The notes: generated by a model not told the origin, from the letters alone. 53,872 nt of DNA from Patescibacteria group bacterium (GCA_022574205.1 JACZSL010000003.1:1-53872), one strand, 5' to 3'. Shown: positions 10,163 through 34,510, counted from the stretch's first letter. Made by a program: numbers and translations.

Positions 10163-12175
10163 CTAAACCCCTTCAAGTGCGCGTATTTCGTCACGGATAA
10201 TTGCTGCAGTTTCGAAATCAAGGATTTTAACAGCTTTCTCCATGGCGAGTTTCTTATCTTTAATAACTCCTTTTGGATTTTTTTTGTAGAGTTCTCTGTC
10301 AACTAAAAGTAATGTAGAAACAGTTTTTTCATGAGAGCTACGTAGTTGATCAGTGATGTCTTCAATTTTTTTTATGATGGTCTTTGGTGTAATTTTATGT
10401 TTCTTGTTGTGCGCTAGTTGTATTTCCCTGCGTCTATTTGTTTCAAGGGTGGCAACCCGCATGCTCTTTGTGACGTTGTCAGCGTATAAAACTACATGAC
10501 CTTCGACATTCCTTGCCGCTCGACCTATAATCTGAATAAGTGCTGTAATAGAGCGAAGAAAACCTTCCTTGTCTGCGTCTAAGATACCTATAAATGAAAC
10601 CTCTGGGAGATCCAACCCTTCGCGAAGCAAGTTCACACCAACAAGGCAATCAAATTTTCCTTTGCGAAAGTCAGTTAAAATCGTGATGCGCTCAATTGTC
10701 TTAATGTCGCTGTGTAGGTATTCTGCTTTGATATTTTTCTGTTTTAAAAAATCGGTAAGATCTTCTGCCATTTTTTTTGTTAGCGTTGTTGCCATTGTTC
10801 TATTTCCGCCTTTAATAACCTTCTCACTTTCCTTAATGAAGTCGGCTACCTGACCTTCATAAGTACCCTTGCTTACAATACCGCGCAAAATAATTTCTGG
10901 GTCAACGAGTCCTGTCGGACGAATTATTTGTTCCACAGTATTTTTGGTTCTCTCTAGCTCATATGGACCTGGGGTCGCCGACGTATAAATTACTTGATTG
11001 ACCCTCTCTTCAAATTCTTCAAAGTTTAAAGGTCTATTATCAACAGCGCTAGGAAGTCGAAATCCGTGTTCTACAAGATTATCTTTCCTCGAGCGATCAC
11101 CTGCATACATTCCACCAAGTTGTGGAACGGTGATGTGCGACTCATCAATTATCGTTAAAAAATCTGCTCTACCGCTTGCTGTGTGAGGAAAATACGAAAG
11201 CAGTGTGTATGGTGGTTCCCCGGGCCTGCGGCCATCAAAATGCCGTGAATAGTTCTCAATGCCGCTACAGTAACCAATCTCTCGAATTAGAGCTATATCG
11301 TGGCGTGTACGCCGTTTTATGCGTTCTGCTTCCAATATCTTGCCGGCTTTTTCAAATTTCTTGATTCTTTCCTTTAGTTCCATCTCGATGTCGGAAATTG
11401 CGCGCTTCCTCTCATCCTCTGGTGTAATAAAATGCTTTGCGGGATATAAGAAAAAGAGATCTATATTTTCGATAATTTTACGACTGATGGCATCAATTTT
11501 TTCTATTACAGAAATAACATTCTTTTCAAGTGTTAAGCGGTAGATTACTTTCTCGTTAGTTGGCATAATCTCTATAGTGTTTCCTACCGCGCGAAATGCC
11601 CCTGGGGAAAGGTCGGCGTTTGTGCGTTCAAAGTAAATGTAAATAAGTTTGCGCAAAAATTCGCCACGCGTGACTGTATCTCCTTTTGCGATCTTTATAT
11701 GAACTTTTTCATACTCCACAGGACTTCCCAACCCATAAATTGCGGAAACACTTGCTACGACAATTACGTCGCTTCGCGTTAAGAGTGCTTGTGTACTCGC
11801 GTGACGCAACCGATCAATCTCCTCGTTTATTTGTGCTTCTTTTTCTATATATGTATCACTGACAGGTAGATACGCTTCAGGTTGATAATAATCATAATAC
11901 GAGACAAAGTAATGAACAGAGTTACTAGGAAAAAAAGTCCTATATTCTTGAGCAAGTTGGGCAGCAAGCGTCTTGTTGTGTGCAATAACGAGTGTTGATT
12001 TTTGAACTTTTTCTATAACGTTTGCCACTGTGAACGTTTTTCCTGAACCAGTCACACCTAAAAGGACCTGGTGATTGAGGCCCTTTTTTATACCTGCCGA
12101 GAGAGATTGTATTGCTTTTGGTTGGTCTCCTGCCGGCTTAAATTCAGATTGTAGTTTAAACTTTTCGTTGTTCAT
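10163..12175 (-). CDS. uvrB: Excinuclease ABC subunit B
   Basis: GVTGSGKT, beta-hairpin YYDYYQPEAY, DESH, C-terminal UVR (DFETAAIIRD); start reassigned to MNNEK. Confidence 0.97.
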   Translation of the reverse strand: MNNEKFKLQSEFKPAGDQPKAIQSLSAGIKKGLNHQVLLGVTGSGKTFTVANVIEKVQKSTLVIAHNKTLAAQLAQEYRTFFPSNSVHYFVSYYDYYQPEAYLPVSDTYIEKEAQINEEIDRLRHASTQALLTRSDVIVVASVSAIYGLGSPVEYEKVHIKIAKGDTVTRGEFLRKLIYIYFERTNADLSPGAFRAVGNTIEIMPTNEKVIYRLTLEKNVISVIEKIDAISRKIIENIDLFFLYPAKHFITPEDERKRAISDIEMELKERIKKFEKAGKILEAERIKRRTRHDIALIREIGYCSGIENYSRHFDGRRPGEPPYTLLSYFPHTASGRADFLTIIDESHITVPQLGGMYAGDRSRKDNLVEHGFRLPSAVDNRPLNFEEFEERVNQVIYTSATPGPYELERTKNTVEQIIRPTGLVDPEIILRGIVSKGTYEGQVADFIKESEKVIKGGNRTMATTLTKKMAEDLTDFLKQKNIKAEYLHSDIKTIERITILTDFRKGKFDCLVGVNLLREGLDLPEVSFIGILDADKEGFLRSITALIQIIGRAARNVEGHVVLYADNVTKSMRVATLETNRRREIQLAHNKKHKITPKTIIKKIEDITDQLRSSHEKTVSTLLLVDRELYKKNPKGVIKDKKLAMEKAVKILDFETAAIIRDEIRALEGV

Positions 12176-12291
12176 CCCGTACGAAATAGGTCGCGGCAAA
12201 ACTATGTTGACCTATAATTAATTTTACTAAATCCGATATTGTGTATGTTACGAATTATATATACATATGCGACCCGCGATTTCGTACGGGA
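12175..12291 (-). mobile_element. Start-codon hairpin element at uvrB (no intact target duplication)
   Basis: Perfect 13-bp terminal IR tcccgtacgaaat/atttcgtacggga plus inner ggtcgc/gcgacc; terminal base is the A of the uvrB ATG. Confidence 0.65.
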
Positions 12292-12296
12292 ACAGC

Positions 12297-12944
12297 TTAG
12301 CTGAAATGATCTTTGATGGAATCCAGCAATTCGTCAGGACTATCAACAACATCAATCACGCTATCAGAAATCTCGGAGTCTTTAAAGTGTCGGCGTTCGT
12401 GAATACCCCACGTGACCCCTATTGATTGCATGCCGGCTTCTTCAGCTTCCATAACATCGCTAGTGGCGTCTGTTATGTAGATTGCGTTTGCTGGATCAAT
12501 GCCGAGTTCGCTCATGATATTTTCAGATTTCTCTGTTTTTGACTGCGCATCTTCTATTGTTAGAATTATTTTAAAGAATTTCTTGAGATTGTGTTTTTCT
12601 AATAACGGTATCGTTCTTTCCTTCCCAGAGTTTGTGTTAAGAGCGAGGATGTATTCGTCACCAAGCATCTTCAGCACTTCTTTCATGCCACTGTGTACTT
12701 GTGCTTTCTCTAGTTTCGTAATTGTGTATTTCTTTGTTCGTTCTTCTTTTTCTTCCTTGGTTTCATCTATGTGCAGATGCTCATATTCTTTTCTTGCTTC
12801 ATCTGGCGTTTTTTTATGCGTGACATTTTGATACATTTCCCATGTAAGCGATGGATGAACGCTTGCTGCGTTCGTAAAAGCCAGTTGCATTGAATCAATA
12901 ATAACCCCGTCAAAATCAAAAATGAGTAGTTTTTTATGCTCCAT
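12297..12944 (-). CDS. HAD-family hydrolase (phosphatase)
   Basis: Motif I FDFDGVI, motif IV-like YITDATSD; start reassigned to MEHKK. Confidence 0.9.
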   Translation of the reverse strand: MEHKKLLIFDFDGVIIDSMQLAFTNAASVHPSLTWEMYQNVTHKKTPDEARKEYEHLHIDETKEEKEERTKKYTITKLEKAQVHSGMKEVLKMLGDEYILALNTNSGKERTIPLLEKHNLKKFFKIILTIEDAQSKTEKSENIMSELGIDPANAIYITDATSDVMEAEEAGMQSIGVTWGIHERRHFKDSEISDSVIDVVDSPDELLDSIKDHFS

Positions 12945-13079
12945 CCCGATAGTTACCCGCCTGCCATCGCTACAAAGCACAGGGGGTTTGTATTATTGCT
13001 TATAAATAATGACTCAACCTTTACGTTCATAATTTCAATGATAATAGCTATAGCTTTGGCGGGCGGGTAACTATCGGGA
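12944..13079 (-). mobile_element. Start-codon hairpin element at the HAD gene
   Basis: About 23-bp terminal IR with one mismatch; TGGA duplicated on both sides (12940-12943, 13080-13083), each as ATGGA on the minus strand. Confidence 0.8.
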
Positions 13080-13134
13080 TCCATAGTTTGTTTAGTATAC
13101 ACCTTTAAATAATCTTATCTTAGACCTAACAGTT

Positions 13135-13164
13135 AAAACGCCAACTTTTTCAAGTTGGCGTTTT
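13135..13164. terminator. Intrinsic terminator downstream of the FKBP gene (likely bidirectional)
   Basis: aaaacgccaact-ttttca-agttggcgtttt. Confidence 0.75.
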
Positions 13165-13204
13165 ATTTTTTTCTTTTTTAGGCGTATTTTACGCACCGAA
13201 AATC

Positions 13205-13696
13205 CTACCTTACAATCTCAATCAGCATTACTTGAAATAGAAGCGTAGAGTTCGCCGGAATTGGCCCCACCACTACGTCACTATAAGCGAGATGAGGAGG
13301 TATAACGAGTGCGCGAACACCCCCCACTTTCATTCCAAGAAGTCCCTGATCCCAACCAGCAATAACTTCTCCTACTCCAAGTGTGAAGGTAAACGGCTTT
13401 CCATTGTCTAGTGAATTATCAAAAGTTGTTCCGTCCAGAAGTTGTCCAACGTAGTGAACTACTATACGCTCACCACCGACAAGCGTGTCCCCATCTCCTA
13501 AGACAACGTCCTCTGTAATCAAATCCTCAAGACTTGGTACATCGATGGCTTCCAAACCCAGAGCCATCGAAGAGTCTCTGCTTGAGAGCGAGTTTTCCGG
13601 AGAAGAAAAGAAAGATGGACTCAAAACAAAAAATATAAGCACAACAACGAGGCTTACGTACATACCAATTTTCTCGTTTCGGTTAAGTGATTTCAT
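13205..13696 (-). CDS. FKBP-type peptidyl-prolyl isomerase with N-terminal anchor
   Basis: VHYVGQLLDGTTFDNS, VIAGWDQG, IPANSTLLF. Confidence 0.92.
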   Translation of the reverse strand: MKSLNRNEKIGMYVSLVVVLIFFVLSPSFFSSPENSLSSRDSSMALGLEAIDVPSLEDLITEDVVLGDGDTLVGGERIVVHYVGQLLDGTTFDNSLDNGKPFTFTLGVGEVIAGWDQGLLGMKVGGVRALVIPPHLAYSDVVVGPIPANSTLLFQVMLIEIVR

Positions 13697-13822
13697 CCCG
13701 ATAGTGAGAAATTATGTTGTAATAAATTACGACTACTAATCAAACAAAGCGATCTCAACATGTTGATACATATACATACACCGCCCCCTGTGCCCCGCAC
13801 CACATAATTTTCTACTACGGGA
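13696..13822 (-). mobile_element. Start-codon hairpin element at the FKBP gene
   Basis: Imperfect ~23-bp terminal IR; TGAA duplication (13692-13695, 13823-13826); outer ATG lies 5 nt after the upstream gene's stop. Confidence 0.75.
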
Positions 13823-13831
13823 TTCATGAGT

Positions 13832-16927: not shown

Positions 16928-18007
16928 TTATATCCCCTCCTCTTTGAGCTCTTCGACGAGCATTTTCGCTTTCTTCGAGAGTTTTTGCGGGAGTTTGATC
17001 TTTAGCTTTATAAATAGATCCCCACGTCCCCCACCGCGTTTTGGAACACCCTTACCGCGAAGGCGGAGCATTTCTCCGGGTGAAGCACCTTCCGGAACTT
17101 TTACTTGGATTTCGCCGTCTAGTGTCGGTAGTGTGTATTCTTTACCTAATAGCGCGTCTGTGAGTTTTATATTAAGTGTTGTTGTAATGTTGGTACCTTC
17201 GCGCTTAAACCGAGGATCGTCCTCTACGTGGAGCTTTACATACAGATCACCTGGCACACCGCCTGAGAGTGCCTCTCCAGCACCGCTAAGACGAATCATT
17301 TCACCATTATGAATATTTTCTGGAACTGTAATACTAATCTCAACCTCCTGCCTCTTAATACCGATGCCGTGGCAGTCATTACATTTATCGTGCGGGACTT
17401 CCCCCTTTCCATGACATGAATCACACACGCGCATACTCGTGAAAGTCCCAAGAAGTGATCTTTTTGTCTCGTGAATATTTCCCTTGCCGTTGCATGTAGG
17501 GCAAGTGTCCATGCTTGAACCAGCTTTTGCACCCGTTCCTTTACACTTCTTGCATTCGGACACTTTCGTTATGAGTACTTTTCTCTTTGTACCAAAAACT
17601 GCTTCAGTAAACGGAAGCTCGAGATCAATAGAAATGTCACGACCTCGCTTTACACGTCGTGCACCGCCTCCACCATTGAAGAATTCAGTAAAAATGTCTC
17701 CGAGATCGAAATTCTGAAAATCTTGTGCGTTGAATCCAGAGCCTCCAAAATCAAACCCTTCAAAGCCGGCTCCTGGTGCGCCTGGCGCACCAGCACCATT
17801 AAACACCCTTCCGTAGGAATCGTATTCAGCGCGTCTTTTATCATCTGATAAGATGTTGTACGCTTCGCTTATTTCCTTAAACTTCGCGTCGTCGGTGTTT
17901 CCTTTATCTGGGTGGTGTTTGTGCGCAAGCTTGCGAAACGCTTTTTTTATATCGTCTTTAGTGGCATTACGTTCAATGCCGAGGATTGTGTAATAGTCTT
18001 TATTCAT
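16928..18007 (-). CDS. dnaJ: Chaperone DnaJ
   Basis: HPD J-domain, G/F region, four CxxCxGxG repeats. Confidence 0.97.
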   Translation of the reverse strand: MNKDYYTILGIERNATKDDIKKAFRKLAHKHHPDKGNTDDAKFKEISEAYNILSDDKRRAEYDSYGRVFNGAGAPGAPGAGFEGFDFGGSGFNAQDFQNFDLGDIFTEFFNGGGGARRVKRGRDISIDLELPFTEAVFGTKRKVLITKVSECKKCKGTGAKAGSSMDTCPTCNGKGNIHETKRSLLGTFTSMRVCDSCHGKGEVPHDKCNDCHGIGIKRQEVEISITVPENIHNGEMIRLSGAGEALSGGVPGDLYVKLHVEDDPRFKREGTNITTTLNIKLTDALLGKEYTLPTLDGEIQVKVPEGASPGEMLRLRGKGVPKRGGGRGDLFIKLKIKLPQKLSKKAKMLVEELKEEGI

Positions 18008-18159
18008 CCCGTTAGAGAATTATCCTTTCAATATATAAGTGTAGTAATATATTAATATTGTCATCTCTCCCTCTCCACATCATCCAATCTATCCGTAATT
18101 CCTAACGGGACTTGTCCCGTTTAAAAAATTAGCCGTCTCTTATACATCCCCGTGGCGGA
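18007..18159 (-). mobile_element. Composite start-codon hairpin element at dnaJ
   Basis: Inner arm pair tcccgttag..ctaacggga (18007-18110), extra CCCG/CGGG arms at 18106-18119 and 18147-18159; TGAA duplication (18003-18006, 18160-18163). Confidence 0.65.
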
Positions 18160-18243
18160 ATTCATTGTGGTGTGGGCTTCTCAAGATTTGACTCTATTGT
18201 ATCACGGTGGGTAGAGGCTAGTAGAAAGAAAGGTGGATATTAG

Positions 18244-20166
18244 TTAGCCCTTATTTTCCGGGCCTTTAGAGGAATCTTCGTCATCTCCTGATGCGTCTTT
18301 TTCTTTGTATTCTACGTCGCGGACACCTTCCTCTCCTCCTTTGGGATCACTTCCTTCCGATTTAGCCGCAGTGCTCATTGCTTCTCCAATTTTTTGCAAT
18401 TCGCCAGATAACGCCTCTGTTGCTGCCTTTACAACTTTAATATCCTTGTCGTCTTTTACTTTTTTCAACGCTTTGATTTTTTCCTCAACACTCTTCCTCA
18501 CATCTTCTGGAACTTTACCCTTTTGATCTTTGAGTGCTTTTTCCGAAGTGTAAACCATCTGGTCAGCAAGGTTTCTCGCCTCTGCAGATTCTTTTGCCTT
18601 TGCGTCTTCATCAGCGTGTGCTTCTGCATCCTTCTTCATTCGTTCAATATCTTCATCAGTCAGTCCACTAGAAGCCTCGATACGAATTGATTGTTCTTTA
18701 CCGGTTGCTTTGTCCTTTGCCTTGACTTTTAAAATACCGTCAGCGTCCACGTCAAATGAAACTTCAATCTGCGGGATACCGCGCGCCGCTGGTGGAACAC
18801 CGTCTAGCATAAAACGTCCAAGACTTTTGTTGTCACTCGCCATTGCACGCTCTCCCTGAACTACGTGTACTTCAACGGAAGTCTGATTGTCTGCTGCTGT
18901 TGAAAAGCGCTGAGTCGCTGTTGTTGGAATAGTTGTATTTCTTTCAATGAGTTTGGTAGAAACTCCGTGAAGAGTTTCTATTCCTAGAGACAATGGAATA
19001 ACATCCAGAAGAAGAATGTCTTTCACATCCCCTTGCATGATACCTCCCTGAAGAGCAGCGCCGAGGGCTACTACTTCGTCTGGGTTGATTGATTTGTTTA
19101 CATCCTTTCCAAAGAAATCTTTAACTGCTTTTTCGATTGCCGGCATGCGTGTTTGCCCACCAACAAGGATAATTTCATCTATTTCAGATACTTTAAAAGG
19201 AGAAGCTTCAACAGCACGTTTGGTAATTTCAATTGATCGTTCAATGTACGGACGAGCAAGTTCCTCAAGTACTGAACGTGTCATTTTTAGAAGTAAATGT
19301 TTTGGCCCGTCTGCATCGCTAGTGACAAATGGAATATTTATTTCGGTTTCAGTTGCTGTAGATAGTTCGTGCTTTGCCTTTTCTGCGGCTTCATCAAGCC
19401 GTTGTAGAGCAAGTGGGTCCTTTGTTAGATCAATTCCACTCTCTTTTTTAAATTCGTCGGCAATCCATCGAATGATTTTCTGGTCAATATCCTTTCCACC
19501 CATACGATTGTCGCCGTCGGTTGATTTTACTTCAATTGTATCGCCAGAAATTTCTAGAACAGAGATGTCAAACGTTCCTCCTCCAAAATCAAAGACAACA
19601 ATTTGTTCCTCTTTCTTTTTATTGAACCCGTAAGCAAGCGCTGCGGCTGTGGGTTCATTTATTATTCGCTTTACCTCGAGGCCGGCGATCTGTCCTGCGT
19701 CTCTTGTGGCTTTTCTCTGTGCGTCGTTAAAGTAAGCAGGTACAGTTATAACAGCCTCTGTGATTTTCTCACCAAGCTTGCTCTCTGCGTCGGTCTTCAA
19801 TTTCTGAAGGATCATTGCGGAGATTTCTTCAGGGCGATAGTCTTTTTCTCCCATTTTTATCAACATACCGCCGTCTGGTCCAGCTTTAATGTCGAATGGG
19901 ACAATCTTCATTTCTTCCTGCGCCGCATCCTCCTTAAAATTGTGACCAATAAGTCGCTTGATCCCAAAAATCGTATTACTAGGGTTTGTCACCGCCTGAC
20001 GCTTTGCTACGAGTCCTGAAAGTTGTTCTCCGGCTTTTGAAAAAGCAACTATCGAAGGTGTCGTACGTGCCCCCTCTGCGTTTTCAACAATACGCGGCTC
20101 ACCTCCCTCAACTACTGCTACAGCAGAATTTGTTGTTCCTAAGTCTATACCAATTATTTTTCCCAT
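18244..20166 (-). CDS. dnaK: Chaperone DnaK
   Basis: [39 protein letters not shown]. Confidence 0.98.
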
Positions 20167-20787: not shown

Positions 20788-20815
20788 ATAAATTAATTGT
20801 GGCCCAGTTGTCTTG

Positions 20816-20847
20816 CTATCGCTTCGACCAAATGAGCCAAGCTTTGC
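20816..20847 (-). repeat. Displaced duplicate of the rpsI 3' end (att-like scar)
   Basis: ctatcgcttcgacca at 20816-20830 is identical to 20991-21005; partial match continues (gagc..gctttgc). Confidence 0.75.
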
Positions 20848-20990
20848 ATTTTCGAACCCACGGTTCTCAACATTCGCTCCACTCATTGCTCTCCTACACG
20901 AACTGAAAAGTGGTGGGATTGCTTTTCAGGCCGTTTCCGCGGAAAACAATCCCATTGCTTTTCGCCCTTTCCACAGCACAATGATCTTCT

Positions 20991-21407
20991 CTATCGCTTC
21001 GACCATTGAGCTGCTTTGCGCGCTTTCTTTAGACCAAATTTCTTGCGCTCTTTGACGCGAGGATCTCTCTTCAAAAATCCTGCTTTTTTGAGTTTTGTGC
21101 GAAGTGCTGGTTGAAGCTTAATGAGTGCTCTCGAAATTCCCAAGCGGATTGCCTCTGCTTGGCTGGTCTGTCCTCCACCGCGCACTTTAACACTGACAAA
21201 AAATGTTTTATCAATATCAATATTTCTCAGCGCTTCCTCAACAATTTTCTGAAGAGTTTTAATAGGAAAAAAGTCAACGTGGTCTTTATCATTTACAGTG
21301 AATGTTTCTTTCTTATTTTCAAAAAGACGTACGCGCGCAACAGCCGTTTTTCTCCGGCCGACTGCCTCAATGTATTCTCCTTTTTTCATTGCTGGAGTTG
21401 TTACCAT
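20991..21407 (-). CDS. rpsI: 30S ribosomal protein S9
   Basis: AVGRRKTAVARV...ERKKFGLKKARKAAQWSKR. Confidence 0.97.
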   Translation of the reverse strand: MVTTPAMKKGEYIEAVGRRKTAVARVRLFENKKETFTVNDKDHVDFFPIKTLQKIVEEALRNIDIDKTFFVSVKVRGGGQTSQAEAIRLGISRALIKLQPALRTKLKKAGFLKRDPRVKERKKFGLKKARKAAQWSKR

Positions 21408-21457
21408 GTCTTAGATCTTGTTAATTATTCTGAGCGTAGCGAGAAATAATGTTATTA

Positions 21458-21586
21458 AATCTTAAACCCGCCGCAGTTTTTGAACATACACCAAAATACT
21501 GTGCTAGCATAGCACATGTGTTTTTCTCCCATAATGTATCTTTTTTCCTCATGGTGTTTGTTCAAAAATTTAGGCGGGTAAATTCG
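21458..21586 (-). repeat. 129-bp structured intergenic repeat, copy A (rplM-rpsI)
   Basis: Homologous to 23995-24123; long imperfect stem acccgcc..tttttgaaca / tgttcaaaaa..ggcgggt; adjacent 11-bp hairpin at 21592-21624. Confidence 0.85.
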
Positions 21587-21636
21587 CTTTTCTGTATTCT
21601 ACTTCGATTCCTCGTAGAATACAGGATCTCATTTAG

Positions 21637-21984
21637 TTATTCTCTTACGTTAAGCTTTTTCATGCGTGGTGCACGTAACTTGTTGCCGGGAAGCATACCA
21701 TAAACTGCCTTGCGTACGAGTTCACCAAACCCATGTTTCTCTACAACCTTTTCTCCAGTACGAAATGATAGTCCTCCAGGATATCCTGAATATGAGGGGT
21801 ACTGTTTTTTCTTTAGAAAGTAGTCTCCTATGTCTAGCTTCGAAGCGTTGAGGACCTCAACCTCTACGTTGCTAATTTTCTGTGGCTCGTAATCTGGGCT
21901 GTCTTTACCCATGAGTTTATAAGCCACTTCAGTTGCGATTCGTCCAAGTTTTTTTCCTTTTGCGTCAATCGTGTGTTTTTTCAT
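21637..21984 (-). CDS. rplM: 50S ribosomal protein L13 (short)
   Basis: IDAKGKKLGRIATEVA...SGYPGG...AVYGMLPGNKLR; start MKKHT 1 nt after the rplQ stop. Confidence 0.95.
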   Translation of the reverse strand: MKKHTIDAKGKKLGRIATEVAYKLMGKDSPDYEPQKISNVEVEVLNASKLDIGDYFLKKKQYPSYSGYPGGLSFRTGEKVVEKHGFGELVRKAVYGMLPGNKLRAPRMKKLNVRE

Positions 21985-23341: not shown

Positions 23342-23959
23342 CTATCGACTGTAGTATTCCATGACAATTCCTATATCGAAAAGGGCTTCGATAGATTCCC
23401 TAGTTGGAATACTTTTAACCTTACCTTCTAATTTATTACGATTAAAATCTAACCAAGTTGGTACACTGCGCTCTTCTTCACCTTCTTTAATGTGAGCATA
23501 AAGCGGGCTATTTTTGCTTTTTTCTCGAACGGTAATTACATCATTTGCTGAAACGTGATGTGATGGTATGCTCGCTTTTTTATCATTCACACGAACGTGT
23601 CTATGCGAAACCATCTGCCGTGCTCCACGCCTTGTCGTTGCTAGTCCAAGTCGAAAGAGAACATTGTCAAGACGAGTCTCAAGCAGTACCAAAACATTGC
23701 TTCCGGGGTCTCCTTGCTTTTTATTTGCCATACTAACGTAGCGCGACAATTGCTTTTCCGTAATACCATAAGTTGCCCTAACGCGCTGTTTTTCAAGAAG
23801 CTGTTTTCCATAATCGCTAAGGCGACGAGGACGTCCTCGGCCAATTCTCATCCCAGACTGACGCCTCGACTCTCGTAGGGCATACTTCTGTGTCTGACAC
23901 TTTTCGTAGACTGAATTCCCCAACCTTTTACATACTTTGTATCGTGGTCCTACAATCAT
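23342..23959 (-). CDS. rpsD: 30S ribosomal protein S4
   Basis: LSDYGKQLLEKQR, LETRLDNV, ARQMVSH. Confidence 0.97.
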   Translation of the reverse strand: MIVGPRYKVCKRLGNSVYEKCQTQKYALRESRRQSGMRIGRGRPRRLSDYGKQLLEKQRVRATYGITEKQLSRYVSMANKKQGDPGSNVLVLLETRLDNVLFRLGLATTRRGARQMVSHRHVRVNDKKASIPSHHVSANDVITVREKSKNSPLYAHIKEGEEERSVPTWLDFNRNKLEGKVKSIPTRESIEALFDIGIVMEYYSR

Positions 23960-23994
23960 GTTAGATTTTATTAGCGAGCAAGGCGAGATTAGAA

Positions 23995-24123
23995 AATCTT
24001 AAACCCGACAAAGTTTTTGAACACACACCAAAATGCTGTGTTAGCGTAACATGAGTGTTTTGTTCTTTCAATATGTTGTTCTCTGTCATAATGTTTGTTC
24101 AAAAATTTAGGCGGGTAAATTCG
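23995..24123 (-). repeat. 129-bp structured intergenic repeat, copy B (rpsK-rpsD)
   Basis: Same length as copy A, last 32 bp identical; adjacent 12-bp hairpin at 24129-24160. Confidence 0.85.
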
Positions 24124-24168
24124 TACTTCTAGATTTTGTTTTGTTCCTAACAAAATCTAGGTGTTTAT

Positions 24169-24603
24169 TTATACTCTCCTAGGCTTTTTTGCCCGTGGAC
24201 CGTTAAATGGAATAGGTGTCATATCTTTAATGGTTTTTATCTTAATACCTTTTGATGAAAACGCACGAAGCGAACTCTCGCGCCCGCTCCCCACTCCTTT
24301 AATAACAACATCAACATCTTTAACACCGATTAGTGCAGCTTTTTCCCCAACAAGCTCGCCTACTTTTGCTGCGGCAAAAGGAGTCCCTTTTCGTGCCCCA
24401 CTAAAACCGAGAGCTCCACATGATGAAAAAATAACAGCACCACCTTCTTTGTCTGTAAGCATAAGTATTGTGTTGTTGTATGTTGCTTTAATATGTAAAA
24501 TACCTGCCTCCATTCTTTTCTTTGGCACGCGAGAAAGAGACCGACTTTTTAGACCTTGGTTCATTCCACCTCCTTTTTTCTTAACAATTCGTTTCTTTCC
24601 CAT
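24169..24603 (-). CDS. rpsK: 30S ribosomal protein S11
   Basis: ATYNNTI, KGTPFAA, GVGSGRES, PIPFNGPRAKKPRRV. Confidence 0.97.
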   Translation of the reverse strand: MGKKRIVKKKGGGMNQGLKSRSLSRVPKKRMEAGILHIKATYNNTILMLTDKEGGAVIFSSCGALGFSGARKGTPFAAAKVGELVGEKAALIGVKDVDVVIKGVGSGRESSLRAFSSKGIKIKTIKDMTPIPFNGPRAKKPRRV

Positions 24604-25052: not shown

Positions 25053-25166
25053 TTACCCCTGCCTCTGTTTGTGGCGTGGATTCGTACAAATAACATAAAC
25101 GCGGCCTTTCCTCCTCCTAGTTTTACAATTTGGACAAATCCTTTTGACTGATGCTTTTACCTTCAT
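25053..25166 (-). CDS. rpmJ: 50S ribosomal protein L36, zinc-binding form (not in the ORF track)
   Basis: [37 protein letters not shown]. Confidence 0.97.
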
Positions 25167-25278
25167 CCCGATAGTAATAGGACACGGACATTAATTATCC
25201 TTGCCATAAATTTAAACTTTTGTAATTGTTCGACTTTTTCTTCATATATCGTGTTAGTGTCCGTGATTACTATCGGGA
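25166..25278 (-). mobile_element. Start-codon hairpin element at rpmJ
   Basis: Terminal IR tcccgatagtaat/attactatcggga plus inner cacggacaytaa arms; TGAA duplication (25162-25165, 25279-25282); an extra decayed arm CTAATAGG-ATG precedes it. Confidence 0.8.
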
Positions 25279-25420
25279 TTCATCCTATTAGAGAGTTTTC
25301 TCTCTTGAAAAATGTACCAACTCTAATAAAAATACTCCACTCCCTCATTCCCTTTTTATAAACAAAAAAAACTACGAACACGCCTTTGGCGTAAATAACA
25401 AGTAGTTATAGTCTTTTCCC

Positions 25421-25639: not shown

Positions 25640-25771
25640 TCACATTTGGCAAGTTTGCATATATTACCAGAAATGAGTGCGTAGGTCAATATATTTTGCT
25701 CTTTCCCGCCATTTTTTGCGATTATATATAACATGAGCAGTATCGGCTCAGTTATAGCTCTATTTTGCGTT

Positions 25772-26035
25772 TTAATTGGTGGATATTTCTGCCAGTTTAC
25801 TGTGCGTTTTAGGTCCAAACCGACCATGTCCGGTCGTACCCGGTGTTCCGGAAGATACAATACCGTATTTTGCCTGAAACTTTTGTACAGCACGCTCGGT
25901 GAGTGAACCAAAATAATTTGTCTCCAGTCCCGGTGAGCCGGCTCCGCTTTCTGCAACTTGCGTGTCGGGGTCACTGTTCAAGAGCTGTTGGAGACGTTTT
26001 ATATCAAGATTTGACTGTTTGCAAAATATTGACAG
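25772..26035 (-). pseudogene. Isolated peptidoglycan-binding-domain fragment
   Basis: DIKRLQQLLNSDPDT...YFGSLTERAVQKFQAKYGI...GRFGPKT; similarity extends upstream of the only (TTG) start to an in-frame TAG at 26036-26038. Confidence 0.55.
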
Positions 26036-26039
26036 CTAG

Positions 26040-27344
26040 CTACTCTCCTTCAAGTTCAAGAATCTGTTTTATGCTGATTTCTTCTGCGTCATCAGGAAAA
26101 CTCTTGCGCCAGAATGGCCGAACTATCACCTCTGCGCGATCGATGCCAGGATACCCTGAAAGTATAGTATAGATTGCTTCTTTTGCCCTACCTGCGAGGT
26201 CTGCCTTTAGCTGCTCTTCGTCATACAGCCAAACAATTTCGACATTACCTGTAAGTGAGAATAAAAGCGGCGACTCTTCCCACGGATTCACACCTTCATC
26301 ACTCTGCCTAGGAATGAGTGTTAGTGCTGATAGATTCAAAATGTCTACAGGGCTGTCGTCGTAATTTCCGAGTGTATTTTCCGCAAGGTAGCTAGCAAGT
26401 TCGGTACTTGTGAATAAAACGCCGTGAAGTATTCCTTTTTCACTAACAACTGCATCAGTTCCTGACTCCACTATAGGTAATGTTTCAAATTCTACAAAGA
26501 GTGAGTTGTCGAAGAAAACAAAACCTTCGGGTGTTTGTTTTGCAATGTCCGAGCGTAATGTTGTCTCAATCTCCTCGCGAAGAACCTGCCTAGTCGATGC
26601 AAGCAAACTGTCTTCAACAACCAACTGCTCTCCTATAAATCCTCCTGTCATTAACGTTACACTTCGCGCGTAGAAGTTTTCAAATTGCGGCGCACCTTTA
26701 AAACCCGGTATGACAAAGTCTGTGAGTCCCCTGTTATAACTTTCTCCTGCCTCATCTGCGTAGACTGTAACCTCAGCGCTCCCTGGAGTTGTGACACCTC
26801 CCTCTTTCGTCTGGCCTGGTACTACAACAGACTTATCAATACGATAAATTTGTCCGTCTGGTGTTTCAAAACGAGTGTTGCGGATAAGTCGCTGACCGAC
26901 AGTGTTGTAATCGTTGTATATGATTATTTTTCCGCTAGCTTTTTGCTCAACTTGTTCTCTCCCTGTTGCTTGAACTGTATCGGTCTTTGTGACACTCAAC
27001 TCAACTGTCTCATATTTAAGGCCTTCACCTGTCTCTTTAGATGGTATTGCAGAGAATGTGCCATCAACAACTAACCGTTCGTGTTTTGGGTAGATTGTCA
27101 CTTGTGCGCCTGAAAGCACCATAGATATTGCGAGAAAGCCTAGAGCAAGGAATAGGATAACAGCGACACTAACATAAAGAATGGATGGCCTTTTCCCTCG
27201 GCGAGGCATGGGCTCGCGTGGTGGTGCTGGTCTAAACCTGTCTCCTTCTTCGTAAGGTGGACGCTTGATGTTAGAATCCACAGGCGGACGTTTTGGTCTT
27301 CGTCCTCCTGGAATTACTATGTCCCGAATTGTGTTTCTTGCCAT
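26040..27344 (-). CDS. Membrane-anchored protein with a baseplate J/gp47-like domain
   Basis: One TM then KASGKIIIYN, NTRFETPDG, VTVYADEAGESYN, GGF motifs (recalled pattern). Confidence 0.55.
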   Translation of the reverse strand: MARNTIRDIVIPGGRRPKRPPVDSNIKRPPYEEGDRFRPAPPREPMPRRGKRPSILYVSVAVILFLALGFLAISMVLSGAQVTIYPKHERLVVDGTFSAIPSKETGEGLKYETVELSVTKTDTVQATGREQVEQKASGKIIIYNDYNTVGQRLIRNTRFETPDGQIYRIDKSVVVPGQTKEGGVTTPGSAEVTVYADEAGESYNRGLTDFVIPGFKGAPQFENFYARSVTLMTGGFIGEQLVVEDSLLASTRQVLREEIETTLRSDIAKQTPEGFVFFDNSLFVEFETLPIVESGTDAVVSEKGILHGVLFTSTELASYLAENTLGNYDDSPVDILNLSALTLIPRQSDEGVNPWEESPLLFSLTGNVEIVWLYDEEQLKADLAGRAKEAIYTILSGYPGIDRAEVIVRPFWRKSFPDDAEEISIKQILELEGE

Positions 27345-27400: not shown

Positions 27401-28633
27401 CTATATGCCCAATTTACGCTTATAAAAAAGGATATCAAGAGCAAGAAATGGGTCAAGTGCCCATTCTCCCCCCAGCCATGTAATGTAGTTAGCAAGATAT
27501 GTACCATCGAGAACTGTTACTTCAAAATGTTGCATATCTGGCATAGTCTCTTGTTCTGATTGTGGTTCGATAATTTTTTTAAACCAACCGGAAAGGTCTT
27601 TATCTGCCAATAGTAAAAGCGTGTTAGGAAGGGGTCGTGTTTGGCGAATTTTATTCAGTGCTAAAGAGAAGGAACTAGTCCACTGTGCTCTAACGGATTC
27701 CATAATAGCAATAAAATCGCTTTCCTGTTTTTGGCTCATTTTCCCGCATAAATATAAATGCAGTAGTGAACGGGTTTCTTCGATAGGTACTTTAAGAACT
27801 TTAGAAATCTCACGGAAAACTAAATGTCGCCCTCCTGTAAACGAGGCCAAATGAACTAGCGTGCCACCATCAACAAGACTTATGTCACTCATCTCGGCAC
27901 TAATGTCCAAGAGTACAAAATCGTCGCTTTGCTCAAAAACATCCCTAGCCGCAAGAAATGATGCAAGTGGAAACGCATGAAAATCCACACTATCGTCAGG
28001 AAGTAATTCTCCTACAATTTCAGATGTTTGGTCGTGAATGTCACGTGAGATGGCGCTAAGTCCTAGATCAATTTTCAGCCTCTTTGTTGGTTTGTCGTAA
28101 GGGTTGCTCGTTTGGTAACCATTTAATGTTGTTCGAATTATCTCACAATCCACTGAAGCCAAGTCTCGATTCCTCGATTTAATAGGGGTGGTTTTGGTAT
28201 CTTCCCCAATAAATTTGGAAATCGCCTCTTTCACAAATCTTTCGGATATTTGCCTCGTCATAGTAAACGGTTCCTCCTTATTTATAGACAACCTTCTTAT
28301 CTCAACTGTAGCCCACGGACTTGAGAATGTGGTTAATACGTGATCTACGAGTTTACCCTTCAGGAAAATGCCTTCATTTTTCAATAGCTGTGTGGTAACA
28401 GATTGCACTTCGAACATAGTGTTCAGTAGTGTTGCAAGCATGGCTTTTGTTAACTTATCTAAACGTGGGGCTGTTTCATGGAAACTAATCGCGTTCCTCG
28501 TGCTGTAAAGAATCTTTGGAAGCTTTTTTGGCGAAAGTATGGCAAGAGCCGCTCCAACACTCCCGCTTCCAATGTCAAAAACAATGAGAGAACGTGTACC
28601 TGTATTCGTCTTTGAAGAAGCTTTGTTTTTCAT
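27401..28633 (-). CDS. Actin-like (FtsA/PilM-like) protein
   Basis: VFDIGSGSV and LLDISAEMSDI phosphate-loop-like motifs, GGRHL; start reassigned to MKNKA. Confidence 0.55.
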   Translation of the reverse strand: MKNKASSKTNTGTRSLIVFDIGSGSVGAALAILSPKKLPKILYSTRNAISFHETAPRLDKLTKAMLATLLNTMFEVQSVTTQLLKNEGIFLKGKLVDHVLTTFSSPWATVEIRRLSINKEEPFTMTRQISERFVKEAISKFIGEDTKTTPIKSRNRDLASVDCEIIRTTLNGYQTSNPYDKPTKRLKIDLGLSAISRDIHDQTSEIVGELLPDDSVDFHAFPLASFLAARDVFEQSDDFVLLDISAEMSDISLVDGGTLVHLASFTGGRHLVFREISKVLKVPIEETRSLLHLYLCGKMSQKQESDFIAIMESVRAQWTSSFSLALNKIRQTRPLPNTLLLLADKDLSGWFKKIIEPQSEQETMPDMQHFEVTVLDGTYLANYITWLGGEWALDPFLALDILFYKRKLGI

Positions 28634-28835
28634 CCCGTTAGAGATAGGAAACGCCAAATAACGAAGTTAAAATAGTGCTTCCTATTTTATTATTTTCTAA
28701 AAATCTTTTCATCGACCTAGGTGTTGTGCCTATTCCGGCGTTTCCGTAAGTTATTTTTTATCTTTATATACATTTACTTATTTTACTATTTTGTTAGTAA
28801 AGGTCATACATAACTATTAACTATCTCTAACGGGA
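28633..28835 (-). mobile_element. 203-bp start-codon hairpin element (twin 1)
   Basis: Perfect 15-bp TIR tcccgttagagatag; TGAA duplication; near-identical to 34198-34403. Confidence 0.9.
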
Positions 28836-28882
28836 TTCATACTACTTATTATATTTGAAGACTATTTTCCCGCAATGATTTT

Positions 28883-30958: not shown

Positions 30959-31031
30959 ATAATAGTACTAGTGTAACATCACTTTAAGGCAAACATAACG
31001 CTCACATGGTACTAATTCATATCAAATCCTA

Positions 31032-31066
31032 CCACTTTGATCGAGATCGGATCTCGATCAAAGTGG
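31032..31066. repeat. Perfect 17-bp inverted repeat containing four GATC
   Basis: ccactttgatcgagatc-g-gatctcgatcaaagtgg. Confidence 0.85.
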
Positions 31067-31107
31067 AAAATTTTCCTTATACTTTCCCCATATACCAATA
31101 CTTATAC

Positions 31108-32200: not shown

Positions 32201-32231
32201 GAGAGAAAGTATAGCATGGCTATCTGCCCAG

Positions 32232-32732
32232 CTAGTCCCTGTCGTTTACGACAGCCTCCACTTTCGTATCGTCTTCTTCGTAGTATTTAAGTGATTTAAT
32301 CTTTTGTTCAATAGCCCAAAGGATGGTGAAGACGAGCAATGTCAAAAGTGTCGTAAATATCGCAACTGCATAAAGTCTGAAGCCAACTGCCATACCGATT
32401 CCTGCCGCAACCCAAAGGCTTGCTGCTGTTGTAAGTCCACTTACCCTTGATCCTCGAAATATAATCATGCCGGCACCCAGAAAACCTACCCCTGTTACAA
32501 TACCGCCTGCGACACGAAGGGGGTCAAAATTTAACAGTGGTAGATATACTCCTGTTGCAATAGTGGATGTAATGATAAAGAGTGCGGAGCCTAAAGATAC
32601 AAGCGCATACGTTCGCATACCAGCAGTCTTTCCAGCAATAGATCGTTCAGTGCCAAGAAGCATCCCTAAAAATACAGCTAACACGAGCTGCGAAAAGAGT
32701 GTTACAAGATCTGGATTCACTAATAAATCCAT
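32232..32732 (-). CDS. MgtC/SapB family membrane protein
   Basis: AGMRTYALV, RVAGGIVTGVGFLGAG, GLTTAASLW. Confidence 0.92.
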   Translation of the reverse strand: MDLLVNPDLVTLFSQLVLAVFLGMLLGTERSIAGKTAGMRTYALVSLGSALFIITSTIATGVYLPLLNFDPLRVAGGIVTGVGFLGAGMIIFRGSRVSGLTTAASLWVAAGIGMAVGFRLYAVAIFTTLLTLLVFTILWAIEQKIKSLKYYEEDDTKVEAVVNDRD

Positions 32733-32794
32733 TCAATTAGAAAATTATCCTTTTAATATATAACTAACAATGTGTCCATTAATCTTACAGCAGA

Positions 32795-33304
32795 CTACTG
32801 TGTCTTTCGATCAATTTGCACCGCCATAAACACACCCTCGATAAACCCTCCAAGAGAGTCCTGTAATGGACTGTCATCCCCTAAATTAAACTCTTTATCT
32901 CCGTTGTCATTATATAGAAGTGCGTGGTACGTCTGATTTATTTCGGTGTTCCTCAAAAGTTTTACATATACCTTTTCGCTAACACCAGCATTGAGCCTGT
33001 GTGCGCCAAGTGCATTTCCTAAGACACCATTTACTTCTTCGTGTATAACCACCCACCCATCCTTCTCTATAGACACTGTGTCAATCAATACTCTATCACC
33101 AGACAATTGGTCCGAAATAGCAACGTTGTTATTTTCGGACACAAGTGCGCTATTGCCGCCGGAGCCAGTCATGTTGTCGTCTCCGCCACCACCGTTCAAT
33201 GAGGGAACCCTGTCTCCAATGAGAAACATGATACCAATACCAATTATGAATCCTGCAATAAATGAACCGATTACTTTACTGTTGACTGCTTTGTCTTCAT
33301 CCAT
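32795..33304 (-). CDS. Membrane-anchored surface protein with an Ig-like GWVVIH domain
   Basis: N-terminal TM, Gly-rich linker, DGWVVIHEE...LG motif. Confidence 0.65.
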   Translation of the reverse strand: MDEDKAVNSKVIGSFIAGFIIGIGIMFLIGDRVPSLNGGGGDDNMTGSGGNSALVSENNNVAISDQLSGDRVLIDTVSIEKDGWVVIHEEVNGVLGNALGAHRLNAGVSEKVYVKLLRNTEINQTYHALLYNDNGDKEFNLGDDSPLQDSLGGFIEGVFMAVQIDRKTQ

Positions 33305-33340
33305 ATTCTTTCGTTTCCCTCAGTTATGGCTTATATACAC

Positions 33341-34198
33341 CTATTCTATACGATGATCGCCGGTACACAAGGCTTGACTTTCTGCAATAACCGTGGCTAT
33401 TTTCGCAGGCGCAACACCAGCTTTTTGTAGCGCGGCGGCGTCTTCGCCCAAGTCACGGCATAGCACAATTTTCTGTTCAAGGAGATTCTTCTTTTCCCTA
33501 TCTGACAGCGTTGAAAGACACGTTATAGGATAGATGCGAGTCTGTGTAATGAGGTCGTATAGGCCACGCTTGTTGGGATAGAACCAACTTAGAAGTTTTA
33601 AATCAACGCACTTAGCATACGAAATGGAACTTTTTGTAAATTTAGTATTGGTTATCAACCAAGCTTCACGGACCATGTCCCCTTCTTCCAAGTTTTCTTG
33701 TTTGTGAATATCGAGAAAACGAGCATGCACATAGAGCGCAACTTTTAAGTCCGTTTTAATACCTAGATTGTTGTGAAATTTAATCTCGGCGGAAATTCTT
33801 GTATTGTCCTTCTCCGCAACAAGATCTACTTCGTGGGTTGCACACTTTCCCTGAATCACTTGTTGGATACGCGTGCTATAACCTAATGCGTTAAAAACTT
33901 CTGCAACGTAATTTTCAAACGGGAATCCACTTGGACCAAGAGCGAAAACTCCGCGACGAATTGAGTACCGTGCAGCGACAGTTTTCTCCTTACTTTTTCT
34001 CAGTAGCGAAAAAGCATGTCTGTAGATCTCGCTCGTAGTCATGCCATCCTCAATTTCAGCATTAACGTGATTAACAATTTCCTTGATCAATTTTTGAGAT
34101 GTACCGGTTTTTTTGAGGGACCGCTCAAGTTTACTCTGTAAGAATAATTCTTTCTCGCCATTGGCTTTTATGACATAAATTTCTCGATATTCCTTCAT
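33341..34198 (-). CDS. ATP-cone + Mrr-like restriction endonuclease domain protein
   Basis: VIKANGEKELFLQSKLERSL (ATP-cone), GFPFENYVAE, HEVDLVA...AEIKF; start reassigned to MKEYR. Confidence 0.8.
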   Translation of the reverse strand: MKEYREIYVIKANGEKELFLQSKLERSLKKTGTSQKLIKEIVNHVNAEIEDGMTTSEIYRHAFSLLRKSKEKTVAARYSIRRGVFALGPSGFPFENYVAEVFNALGYSTRIQQVIQGKCATHEVDLVAEKDNTRISAEIKFHNNLGIKTDLKVALYVHARFLDIHKQENLEEGDMVREAWLITNTKFTKSSISYAKCVDLKLLSWFYPNKRGLYDLITQTRIYPITCLSTLSDREKKNLLEQKIVLCRDLGEDAAALQKAGVAPAKIATVIAESQALCTGDHRIE

Positions 34199-34403
34199 CC
34201 CGTTAGAGATAGGAAACGCCAAATAACGAAGTTGAAATGGTGCTTCCTGGTTTATTATTTTCTAAAAATCTTGTCATCGACCTAAAAATGCTGTGCTTAT
34301 TCTGGCGTTTCCGTAGGTTATTTTTTATCTTTGTATACATTTACCCATTCTACTTATTTTGCTCGTTGAGGTCATACATAACTATTAACTATCTCTAACG
34401 GGA
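34198..34403 (-). mobile_element. 206-bp start-codon hairpin element (twin 2)
   Basis: Same TIR and TGAA duplication as 28633-28835; first 38 and last 40 nt (flanks included) identical. Confidence 0.9.
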
Positions 34404-34510
34404 TTCATTATTTCGTACAGTTTTAAATATGGTTTTAAATCTAGATTTAAATGTAAATTTAAAACTATATTTAATTATATGACAGGAATGGGTCTAAACG
34501 AAATAAGTTC

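Follow-up and report, generated by a model that had tools for sequence, protein, structure and literature searches.

In a 53,872-nucleotide stretch of DNA from a Patescibacteria group bacterium (GCA_022574205.1, JACZSL010000003.1:1-53872; "the window" below means this whole stretch), seven hairpin elements, E1 to E7, stand directly on the start codons of seven genes, and they probably belong to a family of small, non-autonomous DNA transposons of the MITE type (miniature inverted-repeat transposable elements), a reading that covers their conserved termini, the target duplication, the rebuilding of the start codon, mobility in trans and the route of expression. Read in gene orientation, all seven have the layout ^TCCCG...CGGGA^TG (here and below, ^ marks an element boundary), with arm tips TCCCG(T/A)..(A/T)CGGGA, and the final A of the element serves as the first base of the start codon. 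At the junction CGGGA^TGRR this terminal A creates a new in-frame ATG and leaves the protein unchanged; native-looking N-termini follow from the rebuilt ATG in UvrB (MNNEKFKLQSEF), DnaJ (MNKDYYTILGI) and ribosomal protein L36. The self-healing insertion proposed from the sequence alone is supported by the three tests set for it, on empty sites in relatives, on enrichment at starts and on the frequency of duplications.

Hairpin Elements in the Window

As shown in Table 1, all seven elements lie where the sequence-only reading had placed them, with sizes of 104-206 bp rather than the 113-206 bp first given. It had also counted six elements with a 4-bp repeat on both sides; five are perfect (TGGA in E2; TGAA in E3, E5, E6 and E7), each with an A before the outer copy, while E1 lacks an outer repeat, its 5' end lying 5 nt past the stop codon of the HAD gene, and E4 has CAAG (18111-18114) as its outer flank and no repeat. 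The spacings noted earlier between a promoter box (E2, E6) or a stop codon (E3) and the outer ATG hold, and the spurious N-terminus MAFPISNGM is indeed explained, being read from a TTG inside E6/E7. Each element folds to one long hairpin (-22 to -57 kcal/mol) with perfect or near-perfect arms of 9-22 bp in all seven copies. In a strict end test (TCCCG/CGGGA ends 60-300 bp apart, at least 8 of the 9 terminal bases complementary) the window holds 6 pairs, against a mean of 0.26 and a maximum of 2 in dinucleotide shuffles; chance or artefact is ruled out by these shuffles, by the same elements in independent assemblies and by hundreds of copies in other genomes. E7 is ~90% identical to E6. The remnant upstream of E4 and E4 itself form a decayed tandem pair, and the decayed eighth copy, ending ..GGATAATTTTCTAATTGA^ATGGA, is 84% identical over 37 nt to E4, which ends ..GGATAATTCTCTAACGGGA^TGAA.

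The window is gene-dense, with ~41% G+C and nearly all genes on the minus strand, and its gene identities were checked with Pfam. The host population is a marine-sediment member of the Patescibacteria (Candidate Phyla Radiation, CPR); the sequencing runs that hold window sequence are marine-sediment metagenomes, and the DnaJ of the nearest GTDB representative is only 61% identical to that of the window.

Table 1. Coordinates of the hairpin elements, their flanking repeats, their remnants and the alleles and RNA contig that bear on them. Element coordinates are given on the plus strand; all seven host genes lie on the minus strand.
Feature	Position	Strand	Length	Remark
E1	12175-12291	-	117 bp	uvrB start
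E2	12944-13079	-	136 bp	HAD hydrolase start
E3	13696-13822	-	127 bp	FKBP isomerase start
E4	18007-18110	-	104 bp	dnaJ start
E5	25166-25278	-	113 bp	rpmJ (L36) start, within infA-rpmJ-rpsM operon
E6	28633-28835	-	203 bp	start of 410-aa protein without Pfam match
E7	34198-34403	-	206 bp	ATP-cone/Mrr_cat nuclease start
E2 TGGA repeats	12940-12943 and 13080-13083	-		outer ATG 13084-13082, 9 nt after TGtTATACT
E3 TGAA repeats	13692-13695 and 13823-13826	-		outer ATG 13827-13825, 4 nt after upstream stop
E5 TGAA repeats	25162-25165 and 25279-25282	-		outer ATG 25283-25281
E6 TGAA repeats	28629-28632 and 28836-28839	-		outer ATG 28840-28838, 7 nt after TATAAT (28853-28848)
E7 TGAA repeats	34194-34197 and 34404-34407	-		outer ATG 34408-34406
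Older-element remnant	18115-18160	-	46 nt	TTCCGCC..AAACGGGA; ATGAA (18165-18161) before remnant
Decayed eighth copy	32733-32795	-		3' half of E4-like element, directly 5' of MgtC-family gene
E1 absent in relatives	joint 12164>12295			11 diverged letters between
E2 empty allele	joint 12941>13082		140 bp skipped	precise
E3 empty allele	joint 13691>13823		131 bp skipped	precise
E4 absent in relatives	joints 18008>18191/18196			contig L004; few diverged letters
E5 empty allele	joint 25161>25279		117 bp skipped	several runs
E6 absent in relatives	joint 28633>28843			few diverged letters
E6 RNA contig	28368-28736			gene joined to 103 nt of element

Filled and Empty Sites in Related Populations

The elements arose by recent insertion at the DNA level and are not introns. 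At rpmJ, contig L001, which is from the same species, reads CTCTAATAGGATGAAGGTAAAAGC / TAATAGGATGAAGGTAAAAGC; this is the window sequence minus 117 bp, that is, E5 and one TGAA; in Logan contigs from other marine-sediment metagenomes, joints skip exactly the element plus 4 bp at E2, E3 and E5 (Table 1). The absence of such single-ATGRA empty sites had been named beforehand as one of three outcomes that would refute the insertion reading, and the sites were found. Since the same skip joints occur in DNA runs, they are DNA alleles and not spliced RNA; RNA splicing was considered and rejected, as runs labelled "metatranscriptomic WGA" behave like DNA and show the same joints as the DNA runs. Many metagenome contigs exit the arms of E5 and E6 into other flanks, and some join arms across different interiors, which implies many more copies in these sediment populations.

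Related populations also skip other stretches of the window, namely 20815-20991 (175 bp), 30959-31104 (144 bp), 18630-18701 (70 bp), 19352-20117 (764 bp) and 25689-26098 (408 bp), the last of which spans a 112-aa open reading frame (ORF) without Pfam match between infA and a 434-aa gene. A second, unrelated insertion family is represented at 21407-21637 (rplM/rpsI gap) and 23959-24169 (rpsK/rpsD gap); its two copies are 77% alike and consist of a core GAATTTACCCGCC..GGCGGGTTTAAGATTT plus a side hairpin, relatives carry only ATTAAA/TAAA or GATT at these sites, and the insertions precede an ATG and leave it unduplicated.

Spread Across Genomes and Target Site

Two pattern scans of GTDB species genomes were made. 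The first, TCCCGWTAG-N(86-116)-CTAWCGGGATGRA, matched at least 120 stretches, and 145 elements were found among the matches listed; the second left the flanks unspecified, TCCCGTTAGAR-N(84-114)-YTCTAACGGGA, and matched at least 120 stretches with 91 elements among the matches listed. All counts of 145, 109, 106, 96 and 91 elements given here rest on these listed matches. They come nearly all from metagenome-assembled genomes (MAGs) of Patescibacteria, including Saccharibacteria, Parcubacteria/Paceibacterota, Kaiserbacteria, Yanofskybacteria, Levyibacteriota, Kazan and others, and a small number of MAGs bear the labels Omnitrophota, Sedimentisphaerales/Planctomycetia, Elusimicrobia, WOR-3 or Gammaproteobacteria. 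Binning errors may lie behind part of the latter, but two are on contigs of 80-210 kb.

The target is the TG of the start codon with the next two bases, (A/G)TG RR, mainly TGAA, TGGA and TGAG. In the first scan, whose pattern leaves the outer flank free, ATGAA or ATGGA matching the inner repeat was found in 110 of 145 elements, with A before the outer repeat in 106 and G in 3. In the second, CGGGA^TG stands on exactly one side in 84 of 91, where chance would give ~12% (p = 1.5e-68), an ORF of at least 60 codons comes next in 78, and the inner 4-mers are TGAA (47), TGGA (14), TGAG (14) and others (9). A perfect 4-bp repeat is present in 65 of these 91, found without reference to the flanks and preceded on the outer side by A in 62 and G in 3, which puts the duplications far above chance, contrary to another of the refuting outcomes named earlier. 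An outer GTGAA with an inner ATGAA means that a GTG start was turned into ATG. Some repeats are of 3 bp (ATGG^..^TGGC) or shifted by one base (TATG), and the 7 of 91 exceptions are mostly TAAA, TAAG or CTGA repeats at stop codons or intergenic sites, several of them in non-CPR MAGs. The flank logo has no conserved base beyond ATGRR. As a separate observation, an alternative outer flank, (A)CTTG^TCCCG (CAAG at E4), replaces ATGRA in ~7 copies (L055 4800-4811, L139 ~1050-1063, L037, L108 5089-5100, L105 664-690, L026 7240-7262; window 18111-18114); these often lie 7 nt after TATAAT, so that the geometry is kept without the outer ATG and without the repeat.

The downstream genes are of all kinds, with 132 Pfam families among 120 downstream proteins, for instance topoisomerase I, ClpP, SSB, SecDF and EF-Tu-family GTPases. 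In locus L108 (2972-7888) five elements in 5 kb occupy the starts of rpsS, rpmC, rpsQ, rplX and rpsH (S19, L29, S17, L24 and S8) in one S10/spc ribosomal-protein operon; four of the five form a subfamily with different arms (TCCCGCACCTTTAG..) and the same TCCCG/CGGGA tips at the same site. A gene-specific cis-regulatory leader (riboswitch, attenuator or operator) was rejected, given the 132 families downstream and the presence and absence that differ between strains. Carriage by phage was also rejected, as no IMG/VR match was obtained.

Structure of the Element

The elements measure 76-206 bp, mostly ~105-135 bp and some ~205 bp, and have the conserved termini TCCCG(T/A)TAGAR ... YTCTA(A/T)CGGGA. 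Over the 145 copies the 13-bp terminal consensus is TCCCGTTAGARNN, and the 13-bp terminal helix that it forms is called P1. The outermost 10 bases at either end of the element scarcely vary; the three that follow them inward are paired but differ between copies. One arm is then followed by AGG or AGA in 96 of the 145 copies, marking a second helix, P2, which begins with GG, finishes with CC and is found in 86 of the 96 with 40 different stem sequences. A single bulged T lies between P2 and the 3' strand of P1 in 90 of 96, and at least 3 nt separate P2 from the 5' strand of P1. Two architectures can be distinguished: in type I (55 copies) P2 is a local hairpin with a loop of 3-5 nt preceded by an AT-rich variable segment, while in type II (31 copies) P2 closes the whole variable segment and its 5' strand stands at a fixed offset of 16; the AT-rich variable segment is ~65 nt long. 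E1 and E5 are of type II, with P1 TCCCGTACGAAAT, spacer CGC, P2 GGGTCGC..GCGACC and the bulged T in E1, and P1 TCCCGATAGTAAT, spacer CAC, P2 GGACAC..GTGTCC and the bulged T in E5; E6 and E7 have inserts in both places, and P2 of E6 is GGAAACGCC..GGCGTTTCC with a large loop.

P2 covaries: in 16 copies with 4-nt loops, 5 of 7 pairs have changes on both sides, and since this set was picked for pairing, the compensatory changes alone count as evidence. The P2 side is gene-proximal in 88 copies and gene-distal in 8, an orientation bias of 92%. The interiors are unrelated between copies (102 clusters among 109) and hold no long ORF, the longest frame being an upstream ORF (uORF) of 6-44 codons. The P1/P2 junctions hold only 1-3 conserved bases and no conserved catalytic core, and Rfam gave no family at the gathering threshold (window and eight loci) or at E<=10 (E1-E3), only tRNAs and noise. 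An integron attC site was considered and rejected, because GTTAGAR...YTCTAAC has the reverse order of the attC consensus RYYYAAC...GTTRRRY, the copies lie at gene starts rather than behind cassettes, and the window has no integrase.

Enrichment at Start Codons

Of the ATGRA sites in the window, 7 of 13 at starts are occupied and none of 22 in intergenic DNA (Fisher p = 2.6e-4). In the related loci (160 x 8 kb, ~1.2 Mb), 128 of the 145 elements precede an ORF of at least 80 codons, and several of the others either belong to a tandem array as its upstream member or stand before small ribosomal proteins, while only 4% of the unoccupied ATGRA sites are at ORF starts, 80% being inside ORFs and 16% intergenic, the last figure coming from a crude ORF model that overestimates it. 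The excess at starts is extreme even if 45-60% of the tolerated sites were starts, and the enrichment first proposed from the window therefore extends to the loci. The -10 and Shine-Dalgarno content of occupied starts is like that of other starts, and 45% of occupied starts are less than 20 nt from the upstream ORF, so the site is not promoter-marked. Targeting of the transcription bubble at leaderless promoters was rejected on the same grounds, as nearly half of the occupied starts are operon-internal and their -10 frequency is that of the others.

It is conceivable, though we would not favour it, that selection alone accounts for this distribution: the element would insert at any (A)TGRR without recognising the start codon itself, and intragenic and untranslated intergenic copies would be lost, a stable intergenic hairpin being harmful through polarity or cleavage, so that the survivors are those whose 5' arm is melted by ribosomes coming from the old ATG. 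The absence of flank conservation beyond ATGRR, the ordinary -10 and Shine-Dalgarno content of occupied starts and the rare copies at TAAA, TAAG and CTGA sites all agree with it; so do the tightly packed, near one-strand genome, in which nearly every intergenic site lies within an operon transcript, and the excess of open uORFs described below, which suggests that ribosome passage matters. However, intergenic ATGRA sites outnumber start sites (22 against 13 in the window, 722 against ~313 in the loci), yet hold only ~5-10% of the copies; between genes of the same operons other hairpin insertions are present (21407-21637 and 23959-24169); E1 and E4 have endured although they lack an outer ATG; and tandem arrays at one start are common.

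The restriction to start codons appears to exceed what a 5-bp target preference and the loss of intragenic insertions would give. Start codons might be recognised as such, with integration coupled to a promoter-independent mark of initiation, for example a ribosome in the act of initiating, a guide RNA or some structure; alternatively, the elements might amount to a mobile "translation hand-over cassette" that Patescibacteria, in which Shine-Dalgarno sites are little used, have spread over a good part of their genes, where it would contribute to expression; we put this forward tentatively and hold it to be improbable.

Expression Through the Element

In sediment metatranscriptomes, assembled RNA-seq contigs extend out of the coding sequence and on into the element, 103 nt into E6 (Table 1) and 63-68 nt into E4, and element interiors occur in RNA-seq at depths like those of the downstream genes. 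Contigs that span gene and element mean that the element is part of the mRNA, which fits the suggestion that it may have become a 5' leader. The outer ATG opens a short frame, M-N/D-P-V-R.., which in 103 of 106 copies comes to its end within the element. No stop interrupts the outer-ATG frame in 36 of 109 interiors, whereas the two remaining sense frames are stop-free in 15 and 10, an excess of about threefold, and the antisense frames in 11-22; weighted by cluster, the values are 33.8 against 12.5 and 10.0 of 102 (Fisher p = 8e-6). The uORF of E2 has 43 codons and stops 9 nt before the rebuilt ATG; that of E3 has 44 codons, and its TGA overlaps the rebuilt ATG (ATGA); those of E5, E6 and E7 stop after 7-9 codons, E6 giving MNPVRDS*. 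The conserved 3' end (CTAACGGGATGA / CUAACGGGAUGA) serves all three frames, with a TAA ending 4 nt before the new ATG in frame 1, a TGA overlapping the new ATG (ATGA) in frame 2 and an in-frame fusion to the gene in frame 3.

On this evidence, the element would be transcribed within the mRNA, and ribosomes starting at the old outer ATG would translate into the hairpin and melt it; the 3' end would then offer UAA, the overlapping UGA or the fusion, and translation would begin anew at the rebuilt AUG. This inner AUG must also function by itself, since there is no outer ATG at E1 and E4 and two thirds of the copies have early stops.

Two other routes were considered and rejected. An element-borne promoter firing at the inner A is contradicted by the 3' arm, where TRYYTC stands 7 nt ahead of the ATG and the last T of a -10 box is missing; by a consensus promoter scan that did not exceed shuffles; by TAnnnT motifs, which have no sharp position inside the element; and by the RNA contigs, which begin or end 63-103 nt upstream of the inner ATG. 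Reading through the element in frame, so as to extend the N-terminus, would be open to only 3 of 106 copies, and frame-keeping lengths are not preferred.

An intron, or a ribosome hop from the outer to the inner AUGRA, is scarcely credible, even though, as known bypass elements do, a stable hairpin here has the same five bases on either side. DNA assemblies as well as RNA libraries contain the skipped forms, the RNA contigs keep the element joined to the gene, E1 (uvrB) and E4 (dnaJ) have no outer ATG, 8 of 96 copies are reversed, and neither a catalytic core nor a match to a ribozyme or intron family is present.

In three RNA runs (X25, X29 and X28) contigs turn back onto the opposite strand where the E2 arms lie (window 12943-13081), at a depth of 69-110; this is most simply a snap-back artefact of strongly paired RNA, though an inverted interior is conceivable. 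As for gene starts in general, many window genes (e.g., at 2865, 15459, 32200, 51323, 51814 and 52747) have an extended -10 box (TGnTATAMT) 6-8 nt 5' of the ATG and no Shine-Dalgarno sequence, which points to leaderless transcripts. In the related loci, Shine-Dalgarno-like motifs are not more frequent ahead of starts than within genes, and -10 boxes 4-9 nt before the ATG are found at 28% of starts against 7.5% inside genes.

Mobility and a Proposed Transposase

A trans-acting, DDE-type transposase with staggered cuts would bind P1/P2 and move the element, and two copies may move the gene between them as a composite. Repeats that vary and yet agree on both sides point to staggered target cutting, as by DDE transposases; in the L108 subfamily the repeat is TGAG three times and TGAA once, concordant each time, which argues for a tetranucleotide copied from the target and not borne by the element. 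Locus L057 has two elements of its own in the order E1-rmlD-E2; the outer flanks are TGAG/TGAG and those facing the gene TGAA/TGAA, as would be predicted had the rmlD-like gene been carried by the pair as a composite. Tandem arrays at one start (L027, L030, L074, L098, L112 and L118), of the form element-TGAA-element, imply that the rebuilt ATGAA is again a target.

The elements had been called non-autonomous, and this agrees with their lack of a long ORF and the lack of a transposase in the window. No transposase with ends of the TCCCGTTAGA..TCTAACGGGA type was found in the window or the related loci, in a pattern search of ends limited to pairs at most 600 bp apart; end pairs up to 4 kb apart in the loci were examined as candidates for an autonomous copy and rejected, being separate small elements that flank ordinary genes. 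No long ORF in the loci begins at an outer ATG.

Genes of the Y1 transposase type (IS200-like, PF01797) occur in four element-bearing loci (L031 238-1037, L050 3541-4266, L096 2253-2530 and L122 6912-7669), and it has to be asked whether the elements are instead single-strand HUH hairpin elements (Y1/RAYT-like) of the REPIN or IS200/IS605 kind, with the bulged-T hairpin as the transposase handle and the tetranucleotide at the element's 3' end matched to the target rather than truly duplicated. The whole element is one hairpin with both cut sites adjacent, a subterminal hairpin with an extra-helical T stands at one end only, insertion is oriented, and a few copies have unequal tetranucleotides (TGAG/TGAA and similar), all of which would suit such a mechanism. 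It is nevertheless quite unlikely: the repeats covary on both sides (TGAA, TGGA, TGAG, TGCG, TGCA, TATG, TAAA, CTTA), even within the L108 subfamily, and the Y1 genes are flanked by palindromes of their own (ACTTGG..CCAAGT and similar) and not by TCCCG ends, occur at a frequency that fits a background of one to three per genome, and are missing from the window.

Copies of the same Y1 palindrome also lie inside a reading frame and are translated in frame (QLGSSASKL and QLGCGAPKL in L031). In the window, GC-rich palindromes CCCCGAACCAAAGCGGAGCTTGGTACGGG at 42936-43103 and 44245-44275 (24 nt, 100% complementary) stand on both sides of a ychF-like GTPase gene and resemble the ACTTGG..CCAAGT palindromes beside Y1 genes in other CPR loci. 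Three element-bearing CPR loci, L065 (6162-7079) among them, also hold reverse transcriptase genes (PF00078) that are 57% alike and probably represent diversity-generating retroelements; no link to the hairpin elements was seen.

Weight of the Evidence

Several points weigh against the transposon reading. The missing transposase is one, and the overestimated count of intergenic sites is another. A 5-bp target cannot separate start codons from the ~20-fold more numerous other ATGRA sites, and since other insertion families are intergenic in the window, simple tolerance is not an obvious explanation of the restriction to starts. The strong orientation bias is unusual for symmetrical inverted ends, and a selected host function would likewise be consistent with termini that are kept between phyla and with a hairpin that covaries. 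As regards expression, the uORF stops early in two thirds of the copies, so translating through is not required; the RNA evidence consists of assembled contigs without strand or ends, and in these no transcription start, processing site or translated product was seen.

On another reading the element would be a domesticated 5' module, useful where Shine-Dalgarno sequences are rare, with mobility secondary; it might act as a ribosome coupling cassette, as a processing site for near-leaderless mRNA or as a binding site for a conserved protein. The termini conserved across classes and even phyla, the covarying P2 with its bulged T, the orientation of 88 against 8, the three-frame layout of stops and fusion at the AUG with the excess of open uORFs, the occupation of over half of the eligible window starts, and the commonness at starts of -10 boxes but not of Shine-Dalgarno-like motifs can all be read in this way. 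Even so, such a module is rather doubtful, because near-identical strains differ in presence and absence with neither state evidently needed, the interiors fall into 102 clusters among 109 and the target genes are arbitrary, decayed copies exist (32733-32795 and 18115-18160), and no processing or regulation was observed. The reading as a MITE-type transposon is retained, at the strength given at the outset.

Relation to Known Elements

It has been reported that Correia (Neisseria), ERIC, RUP and Nezha elements are MITEs of 100-200 bp with terminal inverted repeats and short target duplications; like them, the hairpin family has no transposase gene, many copies, filled and empty sites, RNA stem-loops and co-transcription (PMC3184786). 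Inverted repeats, a short duplication, filled and empty sites, small size and many copies, all features of a MITE, are found in the hairpin family. Known MITEs are, however, scattered in intergenic DNA with targets such as TA, while the hairpin family stands on the start codon with the ATG rebuilt; it is also oriented, has unrelated interiors and shares its termini across a whole phylum. Neisseria REP2 and Borrelia inverted repeats carry a promoter, a site for ribosome binding and an ATG, and so supply the initiation codon, as does the hairpin family (PMC3184786). With those repeats comes a complete expression signal, and the N-termini that they fuse to the gene are new, whereas the hairpin family adds one A, keeps the native N-terminus and, unlike them, has a clear target duplication.

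Other comparisons concern palindromes and selfish insertions that leave a gene product working. Rickettsia palindromic elements (RPE) are ~105-146 bp long and palindromic and are tolerated in genes of a reduced genome, essential ones included, where they are in frame and translated into the protein; the hairpin family resembles them in the tolerance of palindromes in genes, but stays outside the protein, with the start regenerated after the element. REP/REPIN elements with RAYT and the palindromes derived from IS200/IS605 are hairpin units with an unpaired T near one end, have no target duplication and are extragenic; structure kept more than sequence, and Y1 genes in the same genomes, recall the hairpin family, which differs in its variable duplications. 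The piggyBac and IS1380 DDE elements, candidate relatives in view of duplication length and CCC..GGG ends, have 4-bp duplications (4-5 bp in IS1380), CCC...GGG ends plus TAGA-like bases, 13-bp repeats and asymmetric subterminal repeats, and a gene would be restored by their seamless excision; piggyBac targets TTAA and not ATGRR, the similarity of the ends covers only ~7 bases, and a transposase of this type did not turn up here. Selfish insertions that leave the gene product intact include bypass elements (T4 gene 60, yeast mitochondrial "byp") and mobile introns and inteins; matched codons around a hairpin are common to bypass elements and the hairpin family, which differs by repair at the DNA level, with a new ATG and stops or fusion in all three frames, and by copies that lack the outer ATG yet stand on essential genes. 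RPE are listed among the bacterial small repeats (PMC3184786).

No description of the hairpin family was found in a literature search that included the terminal sequences, most subscription journals lying outside that search. No matching Rfam family or IMG/VR sequence was found either; the family differs from every described family known or found in its start-codon site, self-rebuilt ATG, three-frame end, orientation and phylum-wide termini around unrelated interiors.

Significance

No other transposon family was found that has the start codon as its insertion site and an end sequence that repairs the codon. The family shows one way for selfish DNA to spread through a genome that has hardly any DNA to spare, ribosomal-protein operons included, while the genes stay unbroken. 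For annotation, the elements shift gene starts, create false N-termini, break assemblies at repeats and inflate the "intergenic" DNA of thousands of Patescibacteria MAGs. For translation, these organisms initiate at an AUG directly below a stable hairpin (~13 bp or more) and lacking a Shine-Dalgarno sequence, which poses a testable question about initiation in a vast, little-known section of the bacterial tree. If excision is seamless, the element would be a natural reversible switch at gene starts; and if start codons are recognised as such, or a hand-over cassette is at work, a mobile element and the start of translation would be related in a way that is new.

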